From positions 1 through 64,000 of the IMG/VR virus record IMGVR_UViG_2778261689_000001: DNA of 64,000 bases. One strand, 5' to 3'. Numbering within the stretch: position 1 is the stretch's first letter; every line of letters begins with the position of its first letter. The translations under genes and the position numbers were made by a program. The notes under the pieces are model-generated. The model worked only from the letters and a program-made list of their open reading frames with translations, searched no databases and had not been told where the DNA came from. Positions 9,515 to 61,841 of this stretch are shown here, piece by piece. Source of the stretch: a virus (taxonomy: Duplodnaviria; Heunggongvirae; Uroviricota; Caudoviricetes).

Positions 9515-10633
9515 TTATTCAGCCGCCACCGGTTTTAACAAGCCAGCATCGAGCAGTTTACGCGTCAACCACTGCTGGCCTTTACCCGTTAATTGAGGCG
9601 TCAACCGTATCTGGTAGCCATCTTCATCATCCAGCACCACTTCTTTCACCGTGAAATACCCCGCGTTGATGTACTGCTGGAACGGCACATTTTTACGTCC
9701 ACCGGACGCTATCAGGATGCCGTTCTCCCGTAACCAGACAAACAGCGCGTTTTGCTTAAGTCCAACAACCTTTGCAAAATTCCCAATCAGGATCCCTTTA
9801 GCTACTGATACCCGGTCGGCAAAATCGACCTTAGGAGCGGCGGCCACCAGCTGCTGATTTAGCTGGTGGGCTTTCTGTTCCAGAAGCTGCTTTTGTTCAG
9901 CCAGTTCGGCAGCCAGGCGTAGGGCTTCTGGTAATGTTTGGGGGATTGCAACCGGTTGCTGTTCTTTTTGCCGGAAGTAGCTGTCTTCCAGTTTTTCAAA
10001 GAATGCCCATGCCTGATCGGTTTCGAGCATTTTAGCGTGGCGGGCTGCGCCGCGTTCTGTCCAGAGGGTGAGTGAGCGAACATTGCGAGCAATTTTTACA
10101 GAGTAGTTTAAAGCTACTCTGTGCTTCAACTCGCGCAATGATTCTCCTTCAACTTTGAAAAAGTGCTTCCCTTCAACAAAGCGTACTTTGTTCTCATGAT
10201 GATTTTGGCGAATACGGATTGTTTCTGTCCCATACCCTCTAGCAAGAGTCTCGGTTGTCACTACACGCACTCCCTGCCATTCCAGAACGGGAATTTCATC
10301 AGACTGATTCTGAACAACCACCAGCTCCGATTCCTGAACTGAAGGTGCATGAATTTTTTCTGATTTAACGTTAGTTGCTTTCATTCTGTGTGCCTCCTTG
10401 CGTGCTTCGGCTGCGACGGTTGCGTAATTCAGATGACCCTGTTCGAGCAGGTATTCGCGGATATCAGACAACAGGATACGGTGAACCGCGTTCTTGTCCT
10501 TTCTCCGGTAAAGTTGTTTGGTGATCATGAAGTAGTTGGCAATAACGCCTGGTATATCCCTGGTACTGATACAGGCAGTGTGCTGTTCAATTGCCTCGAT
10601 CATCTCTTCACGGGTAACTAACGATGTTCTCAT
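9515..10633 (-). CDS. Antirepressor-like protein (372 aa): N-terminal domain paralogous to ORF 60798-61841, central Bro-N-like segment, C-terminal Ant/KilAC-type domain
   Basis: C-terminal ...IPQTLPEALRLAAELAEQKQ...KVDFADRVSVAKGILIGNFAKVVGLKQNALF...GKGQQWLTRKLLDAGLLKPVA is shared with ORFs 60798-61841 and 59833-60633; start overlaps the icd-like stop (ATGA). Confidence 0.7.
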   Translation of the reverse strand: MRTSLVTREEMIEAIEQHTACISTRDIPGVIANYFMITKQLYRRKDKNAVHRILLSDIREYLLEQGHLNYATVAAEARKEAHRMKATNVKSEKIHAPSVQESELVVVQNQSDEIPVLEWQGVRVVTTETLARGYGTETIRIRQNHHENKVRFVEGKHFFKVEGESLRELKHRVALNYSVKIARNVRSLTLWTERGAARHAKMLETDQAWAFFEKLEDSYFRQKEQQPVAIPQTLPEALRLAAELAEQKQLLEQKAHQLNQQLVAAAPKVDFADRVSVAKGILIGNFAKVVGLKQNALFVWLRENGILIASGGRKNVPFQQYINAGYFTVKEVVLDDEDGYQIRLTPQLTGKGQQWLTRKLLDAGLLKPVAAE

Positions 10634-10851
10634 AGTCCCTCCTGAGCAGAAGCGTTAACAGGGAGGCACCAGTAACTGAGAGAATTGCGTGAATCAGTGG
10701 AAAAACGGGCAGAGAAAATACATGGGGCGTCAGGAAGCTGAGAGCGGGCCTCATCTTCTGTTGGTGCAATAACGAAGTGATAGTGACGTTTTTGGCAGGA
10801 GTAAAAGCGCCAGATAAATTCAGGATGAGTTGGGGTAGGGATAGTAGCCAT
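10630..10851 (-). CDS. Icd-like small protein (73 aa)
   Basis: MATIPTPTHPEFIWRFYSCQKRHYHFVIAPTEDEARSQLPD... is paralogous to ORF 61838-62059; ATG preceded by AAGGAGG; track ORF extended to 11193 is probably over-long. Confidence 0.6.
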   Translation of the reverse strand: MATIPTPTHPEFIWRFYSCQKRHYHFVIAPTEDEARSQLPDAPCIFSARFSTDSRNSLSYWCLPVNASAQEGL

Positions 10852-10924
10852 ATTGGCAGCCTCCTTAGACGTTGGTATGTAACCACCGCAGAAGAGACCA
10901 ATCTTGCTGGCGGTGGACTGTACG

Positions 10925-11005
10925 GAGTTGGCCTTACTGGCGTCCAAGGTAACCAGCCTACCCGAAGGTAGCCCCATACAGCCCACCATTGTAGAGGTGT
11001 GCGTG
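10925..11005 (-). ncRNA. Candidate c4-like antisense RNA core (second copy)
   Basis: Segment between the operator and icd-like gene shares AACCAGC...CGAAG...CCCCA...CCCACCAT blocks with 62125-62205 but differs between them; boundaries not determined. Confidence 0.3.
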
Positions 11006-11169
11006 TACGCCGATACAAAAAAAGACGCGAGCGGCGTCTGTATCGCCTTAGACTTAAGCGGGAGGCCAATCCCGGCACCCGTTTTAATGAGGTGCCTGAT
11101 AAGCATAAACCGAAAATGCCTCAAGGCGCAAGAGGTCAGGTTCAATGTAACATCGGTAGTTAAAAAACA

Positions 11170-11186
11170 CAATTCATTAGAGCAAA
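11170..11186 (-). promoter_or_regulatory. C1 operator upstream of the second c4/icd/ant-like cassette
   Basis: CAATTCATTAGAGCAAA, 14/17 to operator consensus. Confidence 0.55.
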
Positions 11187-11189
11187 TGT

Positions 11190-59803: not shown

Positions 59804-59832
59804 TACAATGCTGGTGGTTCTTACTACGTCTG

Positions 59833-60633
59833 TTAGCGCGTTGCCGCGACAGGTACCAGCACACCAGCATCAAGCAATCGCTTCATCAGCCACTGCTGAC
59901 CTTTGCCGGTTATACGAGTCGTGAAAGAAATCCTGCTTCCATTGCTTGTATCGATCACGGTTTCTTTAAGGGTGAAATACCCACGGGATATGTATTCTTG
60001 TTTGGGGACGTTCCTGCGTTCACCGGTTGCGATCAGAATTCCGTTATCACGCAACCAGGTGAAGAGATAGTTTTGGCCCAGGCCGAGCACTTTGGCATAG
60101 TTGCCGATTAGAACCCCGCTGGCGGTAGCAACGCGTTCGGCGAATTCGACTTTAGGTGCATCCATCAGCATTTTTTGCTCCAGCCGTTGCTTTTGCTCTG
60201 CCAGGTCAGCAGCCAAACGGAGAGCTTCTGGGAGGCTCTTCGGAATAGCAGGTTGTAATCTTCCGGCTCGATAGTCGATAAATGTCTGGTTTACCTTCAG
60301 CCGAAACGCGGGAGAAATCCAGCCTGCGTACTCCACTGCGAGCAATTCATGGGCAAAAGTGCCGCCGCCACGGCCTTCGAACGAAACTATGCAATTCTGC
60401 ATAGTTTCTTTTTCAAGCTCTTCGATGAGCTGTTTGGCTGACAGCGTTCTTAGCCATTGAGCTGGCGCTTTATGGGCACCGAGTCCGCTCGCTCTGTGTA
60501 GAGCATTAAGGTTGTAACGGCCAGCGCGGTCGGTCGTAATTTCAACACCACAAATAACGGGCAGAGTGGTTGAAGGATCGACATTTTGATGAAGGTTTGA
60601 TATATTCATATCCGCATTGAATGTTTGTTGCAT
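59833..60633 (-). CDS. kilA: KilA-like protein (KilA-N domain plus Ant-type C-terminal domain, 266 aa)
   Basis: N-terminal KilA-N-like region; C-terminal LPEALRLAADLAEQKQ...GILIATGERRNVP...GKGQQWLMKRLLDAGVL shared with the two Ant-like proteins. Confidence 0.65.
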   Translation of the reverse strand: MQQTFNADMNISNLHQNVDPSTTLPVICGVEITTDRAGRYNLNALHRASGLGAHKAPAQWLRTLSAKQLIEELEKETMQNCIVSFEGRGGGTFAHELLAVEYAGWISPAFRLKVNQTFIDYRAGRLQPAIPKSLPEALRLAADLAEQKQRLEQKMLMDAPKVEFAERVATASGVLIGNYAKVLGLGQNYLFTWLRDNGILIATGERRNVPKQEYISRGYFTLKETVIDTSNGSRISFTTRITGKGQQWLMKRLLDAGVLVPVAATR

Positions 60634-60702
60634 TTTTTCTCCAAATTTGCATCAACCTTCAATCACCAGCTCGAAATGGTGATTCTTTGCACTTAGAAAA
60701 CG

Positions 60703-60719
60703 AAATTTATTAGAGCAAA
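60703..60719 (-). promoter_or_regulatory. C1 operator upstream of kilA-repL
   Basis: AAATTTATTAGAGCAAA, 16/17 to consensus. Confidence 0.7.
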
Positions 60720-60797
60720 TTTTTCTAACTCGATCCAGATCGGGTTGGACGATCTGCTCAGAAACCTGCCAGTTTGCTGGCAGGTTTTTTTCTTTTG

Positions 60798-61841
60798 TTA
60801 ACCTATTGCTACTGGTTTTAACAAACCAGCATCAAGTAGCTTGCGAGTTAACCACTGCTGGCCTTTACCCGTTAATTGGGGCGTCAGCCGTATCTGGTAG
60901 CCATTTTCATCATCCAGCACCACTTCTTTCACCGTGAAATACCCGGCGTTGATGTACTGTTGGCGCGGTACGTTTTTGCGCGCTCCAAAAGCCATGAGAA
61001 TGCCATTCTGGCGCAACCATGAGAAAAGGGCGTTTTGCTTAAGTCCAACGACCTTTGCAAAGTTCCCGATCAGGATTCCATTAGCCACTGATACCCGGTC
61101 GGCAAAATCGACTTTAGGAGCGGCGGCCACCAGCTGTTGTTCCAGCTGCATTTTCTGTTCTGCCAACTCGGCAGCCAGGCGTAGAGCTTCTGGTAATGTT
61201 TGGGGGATCGATGGGGCAGGGGAGTTTGCCTGCTGCAATTCTTCCAGTTTGTCGATCAGCGAACGGCGGACGGCTTTTGATTCGCGTGCGGCGACTCGCA
61301 GGGCTTGTTTGTAGGTCATGGTTATGACAACCATAGGCGTACCGCCACCTGGCGGCACGGTTGCACTTTTTGTGTAACCGTCCTCACCTTCTAATTCGTC
61401 GAGTATTTTTTCGATGAATTTGTTGTTCCGAACCTCTGGTTCCCCACATAACTTACGAGCTTCATTGACCATCTTTAACAGTGTCTGGCTGTCGATTGTG
61501 TCTCCAGTGTTGGAGATAACATTCACAGCTGGTGATGGCGTAGCTGAAGCAACAGGTGCTGGTTTTTCAACATTCAAATTATTACCGGTCATTCTGCGCG
61601 CCTCCTTTCTCATTTCTGCTGCCACTGTTGCGTAACGTAGACGTCCTTGTTCAATCAAATAATCCCTGATCTCGGCTATCAGTAGCTTGTTGATCACAGC
61701 CTTATCTGTTCGGGTATAAAAACGTCTGGTTATCATGAAATAGTTGGCAATTGCGCCGGGGATCTCCCGTGTCGGCATACAGGTTGTATGCAGGGCGATC
61801 GCTTCGGCTATTTCATTACGGGTGACGAGAGGTTTTTTCAT
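60798..61841 (-). CDS. ant: Antirepressor (Ant-like, 347 aa) of the canonical immunity operon
   Basis: Shares N- and C-terminal domains with ORF 9515-10633; lies between the icd-like gene and the kilA operator. Confidence 0.7.
   Translation of the reverse strand: MKKPLVTRNEIAEAIALHTTCMPTREIPGAIANYFMITRRFYTRTDKAVINKLLIAEIRDYLIEQGRLRYATVAAEMRKEARRMTGNNLNVEKPAPVASATPSPAVNVISNTGDTIDSQTLLKMVNEARKLCGEPEVRNNKFIEKILDELEGEDGYTKSATVPPGGGTPMVVITMTYKQALRVAARESKAVRRSLIDKLEELQQANSPAPSIPQTLPEALRLAAELAEQKMQLEQQLVAAAPKVDFADRVSVANGILIGNFAKVVGLKQNALFSWLRQNGILMAFGARKNVPRQQYINAGYFTVKEVVLDDENGYQIRLTPQLTGKGQQWLTRKLLDAGLLKPVAIG

Follow-up and report, generated by a model that had tools for sequence, protein, structure and literature searches.

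The Ant and KilA proteins of a P1-type phage-plasmid combine a constant KilAC end with exchangeable upstream modules, and one of them belongs to an accessory c4-icd-ant cassette

The stretch of DNA analyzed here, referred to as the window, comprises the 64,000 nucleotides at positions 1 to 64,000 of IMG/VR virus record IMGVR_UViG_2778261689_000001 (Caudoviricetes). Its minus strand encodes three proteins that end in the same KilAC domain. These are the products of the P1-type genes ant1/ant2 and kilA, together with an accessory ant paralog designated here antX, and they belong to the known "Bro network" family, in which a constant C-terminal unit is combined with exchangeable modules. According to this interpretation, which we hold with considerable confidence, antX is part of a second immI-type cassette whose antisense key does not match that of the canonical region, its expression would be gated by both C1 and C4, and the KilAC end would act as a generic unit while the middle modules choose the targets.

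The three open reading frames (ORFs) singled out in an earlier note on this DNA are present as given there: 9515-10633 (antX, 372 aa), 60798-61841 (347 aa), and 59833-60633 (266 aa), all on the minus strand. Both pairwise alignment and a Pfam search recover the common C-terminal domain that the note had described. This segment spans about 140 residues, is 64-90% identical among the three proteins, and runs from IPQ/KTLPEALRLAA through to the C-terminal end. Identities amount to 124/137 (90%) for antX and Ant1, 91/137 (66%) for antX and KilA, and 88/138 (64%) for Ant1 and KilA. Confinement of the similarity to low-complexity sequence, which the note had named as the result that would count against a shared domain, is ruled out. 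The shared segments are of ordinary composition (residue entropy of 3.85-3.99 bits, 18 residue types), and the BLOSUM62 local score between the antX and KilA ends is 461, against 28 ± 4.8 for shuffled sequences. Pfam PF03374 (ANT, "phage antirepressor KilAC domain") matches all three proteins (E values of 4e-31, 1e-30, and 2e-32), with bit scores of 107.9 for antX, 106.4 for Ant1, and 112.2 for KilA over a gathering threshold of 25.3. All three are likewise assigned to PHROG 63 ("anti-repressor Ant"). A tblastn search of the window returned exactly three KilAC copies, with no fourth copy and no third copy of the N-terminal domain described below. At the DNA level, the 3′ parts of antX (9524-9945) and ant1 (60808-61208) are repeated in direct orientation with a spacing of about 51 kb. 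They share 82% identity over 423 bp, the longest exact match being 39 bp, and may serve as a substrate for recombination that creates chimeras or resolves the plasmid.

Two of the three genes can be named directly. The repL-kilA-ant1/ant2-icd-c4 regions of P1 and P7 match window positions 58900-62600 with 96-98% DNA identity, and the P1 annotation maps onto this region feature by feature (Op51, Op53, C4 RNA, a1/b1/a2/b2, icd, ant1 with in-frame ant2, kilA, and repL). Therefore, 60798-61841 is ant1/ant2 and 59833-60633 is kilA. The neighborhood of c1, coi, and pacB fits the same P1-type identity. The ant1 gene itself shows 96-98% DNA identity to ant1 of P1 and P7. Its product is composed of an Ant1-specific N-domain (residues 1-83), a middle module (residues ~108-212), and a long helix followed by KilAC (residues 213-347), with the Pfam ANT match at residues 234-336 (60834-61142). 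The ant2 gene (60798-61592) begins at an in-frame internal start at codon 84 (ATG, 61592-61590), with AAAGGAGG just before it; the P1 annotation lists ant2 as an in-frame product of 264 aa. In KilA, the KilAC domain occupies residues 152-254 (59872-60180). In antX, the shared helix and KilAC cover residues 229-372 (9518-9949), and the Pfam ANT match lies at residues 260-361 (9551-9856).

Upstream of the common end the proteins differ. The N-terminal domain that the earlier note had attributed to two of the ORFs is indeed common to antX and Ant1 (54/94 identical, 57%, residues 1-94), and the KilA-N domain it had seen in the third is readily detected (PF04383, E 4e-21, 75.4 bits over a gathering threshold of 23.8, residues 27-123, 60265-60555). 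In antX, the N-domain corresponds to residues 1-83 (10385-10633) and is followed by a probable Ant2-type internal start at codon 84 (ATG, 10384-10382) after CAAGGAGG; a strong Shine-Dalgarno sequence and an ATG are retained at this codon, the Ant2 start, in ant1 as well as in antX. The shared N-terminal stretch matches no Pfam family, and tblastn finds only its two copies in the window. An exhaustive HMMER profile search of 1.84 billion representatives retrieved it in only 19 clusters. Nearly all of these consist of P1-type Ant proteins or their fragments; a further one is a chromosomal Escherichia cluster whose module of about 65 residues stops with no Ant part behind it. Full-length Ant proteins of 344-467 aa appeared only in this exhaustive search; the matches listed by a word-indexed protein search were fragments and proteins of up to 251 aa. 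A 695-aa repetitive protein (P0177) among the candidate homologs looks spurious. The 83-residue domain of Ant1 and antX is narrowly distributed, and it is absent from the short Ant2-type isoform.

The middle of antX requires a correction to the earlier note, which had described a Bro-N-like insert. This segment is instead an ORF6N domain (PF10543, E 2e-19 to 3e-20, 70.1-72.7 bits over a gathering threshold of 27.8, residues 116-202, 10028-10288), and a Bro-N domain gave no Pfam match there even at E ≤ 10, a threshold at which HMMER filters may still hide very weak matches. The middles of Ant1 and antX are unrelated, as each matches only itself in the window by tblastn. Since antX also lacks the Ant1 middle module, it corresponds to Ant1 with its middle replaced rather than to Ant1 carrying an insert. 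The Ant1 middle module has no Pfam match at E ≤ 10. Its assignment as a divergent pRha domain is unsupported, both by this result and by an hhalign comparison with pRha alignments, which returned a probability of 3.8%.

The proposal of a domain-shuffled family receives direct support from segment divergence, mosaic antX alleles, and natural chimeras. The partner of the KilAC end can be KilA-N, ORF6N, or the Ant1 middle module, and in the closest relatives outside P1 it is pRha. Between antX and ant1, synonymous divergence (dS) is 2.2 (saturated) in the N-terminus and 0.72 in the C-terminus, with a ratio of nonsynonymous to synonymous divergence (dN/dS) of about 0.1 (0.14 and ~0.09, respectively). 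The KilA C-terminus is saturated at synonymous sites against both antX and Ant1, yet the proteins remain 64-66% identical. From these differences in synonymous divergence it follows that the three C-termini differ in age from their partners. Among antX alleles (loci L001, L006, and L010-L013), the N- and C-terminal parts are ~99% identical (dS 0.02-0.25). Divergence is far greater in the ORF6N core (residues ~125-200), with dS values of 0.9-1.8 and dN values of 0.34-0.52. The type of core is independent of the C4 key described below, as L001 and L013 carry the same core and different keys. Such a distribution of changes reflects cassette exchange between conserved flanks and not positive selection in place.

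Natural recombinants include a protein in which the antX N-terminus and KilAC end flank an Ant1-type middle (P0167), and one of 467 aa with the Ant1 N-terminus and middle followed in tandem by ORF6N and then KilAC (P0169). In addition, one antX protein has its N-terminus exchanged for another module (PF25716; P0154), and two stand-alone Ant2-like proteins have no N-domain (P0019 and P0022). Together, these data strongly support the view that the Ant/KilA family diversifies by recombination at module borders. Domain shuffling is, however, a defining and published property of this family, and in this respect our main finding was already known: the C-terminus of P1 KilA is the sequence from which KilAC was first defined, and the domain has been called highly mobile (Iyer, Koonin & Aravind 2002, as quoted in bioRxiv 10.1101/2024.01.05.574328 and PMC9043618).

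The antX gene is located in an accessory cassette of 1707 bp between the c1 stop and the pacB stop (9483-11189), where P1 has 24 bp; P7 likewise lacks the cassette, and its convergent c1 and pacB genes are separated by 24 bp as well. The c1 gene, which encodes the repressor known as the target of Ant1/Ant2, occupies 8631-9482 on the plus strand, and a GC-rich terminator-like hairpin (9486-9507) lies between it and the convergent antX. This arrangement is also found in phages RCS47, where antX is annotated "ant", JL22, where it is annotated "roi", and vB_EcoM-673R5. In PLSDB, about 290 plasmids contain 80% or more of the cassette, and the c1-cassette-pacB stretch is present in 230 of 5426 complete E. 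coli genomes. An intact antX ORF of 370-372 aa is encoded by many E. coli, E. albertii, and Salmonella plasmids. A separate icd-ant-type cassette was observed in pC21-4 (NZ_CP052881.1, 2997-4330; locus L004), at a different site beside cre/cra in the P1 res-mod region. It agrees with the "RD-1" icd-ant homologs reported for pSvP1, and its ant gene appears truncated.

Judged by the order and complementarity of its parts, the cassette is a complete, self-contained second immI-type (c4-icd-ant) unit. On the minus strand, it consists of a C1-operator-like site, a leader with a1/b1 targets, a C4-type RNA, a2/b2 targets, an icd-like ORF, and antX, the last being translationally coupled to the icd-like ORF. 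The operator-like site (11170-11186, TTTGCTCTAATGAATTG) lies at the head of the cassette, 4 nt past the pacB stop, and agrees with the consensus at 14 of 17 positions; in other alleles it is kept as TTGCTCTAATAAATTG, which is nearer to the consensus. The leader (11018-11095) scores as an isrK-type RNA (Rfam RF01394, 60.8 bits over a gathering threshold of 50). It contains the candidate targets a1 (TTGGCCT, 11063-11069) and b1 (GTCTAAGG, 11046-11053) and is ended by a terminator-like hairpin with a U-run (11023-11039). The second C4-type antisense RNA (10906-10993) matches Rfam RF01695 over its full length (75.9 bits over a gathering threshold of 45), and its loops a′ (AGGCCAA, 10928-10934) and b′ (CCTTGGAC, 10942-10949) are both unpaired in the consensus fold. 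These loops are complementary to a1/b1 upstream and to a2/b2 downstream (10863-10901), where a2 is TTGGTCT (10895-10901, one G-U pair) and b2 is GTCTAAGG (10863-10870), the latter overlapping the Shine-Dalgarno sequence TAAGGAGG of the icd-like ORF. This ORF (10630-10851) encodes 73 aa, of which 52 are identical to those of the window's own icd, and is assigned to PHROG 1426 (E 1e-45). Its stop overlaps the antX start (ATGA), exactly as at the icd-ant1 junction.

The canonical region provides the comparison. Its icd gene, identified as an ORF and from the P1 annotation, lies at 61838-62059, and its C4 RNA at 62107-62192, both on the minus strand, with loops a′ (CTGCTAA, 62130-62136) and b′ (TCACAATC, 62143-62150). 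The corresponding targets are a1 (62269-62275), b1 (62254-62261), a2 (62100-62106), and b2 (62070-62077). Both loops and targets are identical to those of P7 and different from those of P1 (a′ CTGTCAA, b′ TCACTAAC). The window is a phage-plasmid of the P1 type with P7 specificity in its canonical immI region. The key of the cassette (a′ AGGCCAA, b′ CCTTGGAC) is unrelated to this P7-type key; therefore, going by complementarity, the two units should not cross-regulate each other. Three key alleles were distinguished among eight cassettes from different plasmids, and in every allele a′, a1, and a2 have changed in concert, as have b′, b1, and b2; the C4 keys of P1 and P7 are separated by the same kind of compensatory change. 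These compensatory changes constitute good evidence for a functional C4 RNA with functional targets in the cassette. The notion that antX is a pseudogene or dead duplicate is contradicted by its low dN/dS, by the compensatory C4/target alleles, and by the intact ORFs.

A long ORF extending upstream of the icd-like gene (10630-11193, minus strand) matches Pfam Phage_ASH (E 2e-11) over the stretch of the C4 RNA and leader. The same observation concerns loci L005, L006, and L010-L012, and in RefSeq the C4 RNA gene is overlaid by an annotated 39-aa "ash family protein". Two readings fit: an Ash-type frame may enclose the RNA, in the manner reported for P4 (PMC10111431), or the protein call may be an artifact of RNA gene conservation.

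What the common KilAC end does is a matter on which structure and distant relatives both bear. In an AlphaFold2 (AF2) model of the antX end, the core has a predicted local distance difference test (pLDDT) score of ~90, and the chain forms a helix of about 30 residues, a helix-turn-helix, a beta-hairpin, and a C-terminal helix. The structural match of this core to winged helices of the MerR/excisionase type is weak, and no solved structure related to KilAC by sequence was found. The domain-only model was used for the fold search, and the full-length AF2 model was set aside (mean pLDDT of 58, ORF6N region below 50). The antX helix that precedes KilAC contains exactly seven residues (one heptad) more than those of Ant1 and KilA (9844-9869). 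As this difference would keep a heptad register, it is taken as a hint of a coiled coil. The DNA at the extra heptad forms a 10-bp inverted repeat (CCACCAGCTG...CAGCTGGTGG). The nearest KilAC homologs outside P1 are 62-67% identical to that of antX, as close as that of KilA, and belong to pRha+KilAC proteins of about 240 residues encoded in the nin region of lambdoid or P22-like prophages. The repressor of these prophages is of the CI type (HTH_3 + Peptidase_S24) and not C1. Such conservation across phages with unrelated repressors makes a C1-specific binding site in KilAC unlikely.

A possible alternative, though one we doubt, is that the main role of the shared end is toxic and directed at the host, namely to block cell division or to dampen the SOS response, with antirepression located in other modules. 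According to the P1 annotation, KilA kills the host, and KilAC domains of other phages act on host processes in isolation. The KilAC domain of AriS alone inhibits SOS, in a family whose N-termini alternate among AntA/B, Bro-N, and pRha (PMC9043618); that of phi11 Gp07 alone leads to filamentation (PMC5944126); and the stand-alone KilAC toxin CreP also leads to filamentation, with weak co-immunoprecipitation of FtsZ (bioRxiv 10.1101/2024.01.05.574328). However, these studied homologs are distant, belonging to Gram-positive phages and Acinetobacter. Moreover, expression of P1 ant1 is known for antirepression and not for killing, and the filamentation associated with immI is attributed to Icd (PMC11897509).

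Binding of a single shared target, C1, by the common end is less probable still. Under this explanation, Ant1/Ant2, antX, and KilA would all be C1 antirepressors, and their N-termini would set regulation or localization. A complex of Ant1/Ant2 with C1 has been reported (P1 annotation; PMC8198154), and because Ant2 is devoid of the N-domain, C1 binding must reside in the middle module plus KilAC; furthermore, both C1 and KilAC are conserved, the latter to 99% among antX alleles. Nevertheless, equally similar KilAC domains are present in the lambdoid prophages with CI/S24 repressors and no C1, the isolated domains of other phages have the host effects described above, and the fold resembles, albeit through a weak match, a DNA-binding winged helix. 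On balance, these comparisons somewhat disfavor KilAC as a shared C1-binding module. Finally, it is very improbable that the antX-Ant1 C-terminal similarity is a functionally meaningless product of recent gene conversion between paralogs on one replicon (concerted evolution), with antX as a decaying duplicate, since the lower dS of the C-terminus (0.72 against 2.2), the 82% identity of the directly oriented copies over 423 bp with their 39-bp exact match, and the occurrence of only antX fragments in some records are opposed by dN/dS values of ~0.09 and 0.14 in the two termini, by intact ORFs of 370-372 aa in many E. coli, E. albertii, and Salmonella plasmids, by compensatory C4/target alleles showing that the cassette is under selection, and by a KilA KilAC domain that is synonymously saturated yet 64-66% identical in protein.

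The interpretation we favor is thus that of a generic KilAC unit behind modules that confer specificity. The constant unit comprises the helix of about 30 residues and the KilAC domain, is predicted as a winged-helix-like core behind a probable coiled coil, and may serve as an effector or assembly part rather than as a C1-specific binding surface. The upstream position is exchangeable: it is taken by KilA-N in KilA, by ORF6N in antX, by a module of no known class in Ant1, and by pRha in the lambdoid relatives, and target choice would lie mainly in the variable middle modules. The antX gene would be expressed like ant1, only upon failure of both C1 repression and its own C4 RNA, and its product would then help to turn the prophage to lytic growth. 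Several points weigh against this interpretation. The operator-like site of the window has three mismatches, a simple consensus scan gave no convincing sigma-70 promoter for the cassette (read-through from pacB is possible), and the antX gene looks fragmented in some records. In addition, KilA has been considered another antirepressor, by personal communication (PMC8201110), and a constant KilAC end would equally suit binding to an invariant partner; C1 would be one such partner, being highly conserved among these plasmids.

Other features of the window were also noted. C1 operators lie upstream of c4-icd-ant1 (62374-62390, minus strand; P1 Op51/Oc4) and upstream of kilA-repL (60703-60719, minus strand; P1 Op53), and a C1-operator scan of the window found 14 sites against 0.34 expected. 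Just downstream of repL there is a hok/sok-type module (58325-58649, minus strand), with a Hok-like ORF of 51 aa at 58325-58480 and a sok RNA at 58475-58649 (114.9 bits); this position is filled by rlfA/rlfB in P1. Three tRNA genes are present on the minus strand (40615-40687, 42327-42399, and 42405-42477), as expected for a genome of this type.

It is important to note that the finding as stated re-describes the founding example of KilAC and of domain shuffling in phage regulators and changes nothing in the field. The useful by-product is the recognition that a common, barely described accessory cassette has the makeup of a full c4-icd-ant unit, with orthogonal polymorphic keys and a mosaic middle domain, in P1-like phage-plasmids, a group that often carries resistance genes. 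This cassette offers a compact natural system in which to identify the Ant module that contacts C1, the function of KilAC, and the origin of heteroimmunity classes. More speculatively, the cassette may be not a redundant ant copy but a second "lock", polymorphic in nature, on the lysis-lysogeny switch of P1. Its antirepressor-like protein would have an ORF6N core that exists as several alleles of ancient divergence, reassorting freely between constant N-terminal and KilAC ends, and at least three orthogonal C4 keys would combine with the P1/P7 key at the canonical locus into combinatorial heteroimmunity types. If this tentative proposal were true, such types would determine whether related plasmids can share a host, exclude each other, or cause induction.

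Among known systems, the closest are Ant1/Ant2 and KilA of P1 and P7. Two of the window's ORFs are these very genes, with the same gene order, C1 operators, C4 RNA, icd, and repL, and ant1 and kilA show no substantive difference; antX is additional and absent from both phages. The "Bro network" and the Pfam ANT family (Iyer, Koonin & Aravind 2002; PMC10111431) already include a constant KilAC end fused to KilA-N, ORF6N, pRha, and other domains, with domain swapping as a stated property. To this, the window adds evidence from within a lineage, in the form of allelic ORF6N cores and natural chimeras, together with the rare 83-residue N-domain. AriS of Listeria phi10403S, phi11 Gp07, and CreP of Acinetobacter follow the same two-part design, with a C-terminal or stand-alone KilAC domain, but their sequences are distant and their hosts different, and SOS inhibition and filamentation are activities reported for these proteins. 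The Roi-like pRha+KilAC proteins of the lambdoid nin region match the KilAC of antX at 62-67% identity, including the LPEALRLAA helix; unlike antX, they have pRha upstream, no N-domain, and no C4 control, and occur in phages with CI-type repressors.

The cassette itself corresponds to the ant insertion between pacB and c1 reported for RCS47 and pTZ20_1P (PMC6906374), at the same locus and with the same gene as antX. With the c1-pacB stretch (8600-12600) as query, RCS47 shows 96.5% identity across 96% of its length, and with the cassette (9483-11200) as query, pTZ20_1P shows 91.8% identity across 91%; their C4 key alleles differ from that of the window. While that report describes the insertion as "two short hypothetical orfs and ant", the region of the short ORFs resolves here into a C4-type RNA, a target leader, and an icd-like gene. 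No paper describing the c1-pacB cassette as a second c4-icd-ant unit was found in the limited literature consulted, which is not proof of novelty. Finally, the control of the cassette follows the logic of P1/P7 c4 immunity, whose relatives include the P4 CI RNA/seqA and Gifsy-1 IsrK, with a′/b′ acting on a1/b1/a2/b2 and b2 placed on the icd ribosome site. In contrast to P1 and P7, the window would hold two orthogonal units of this kind on one replicon, and the leader of the second scores as isrK-type instead of c4-a1b1-type.

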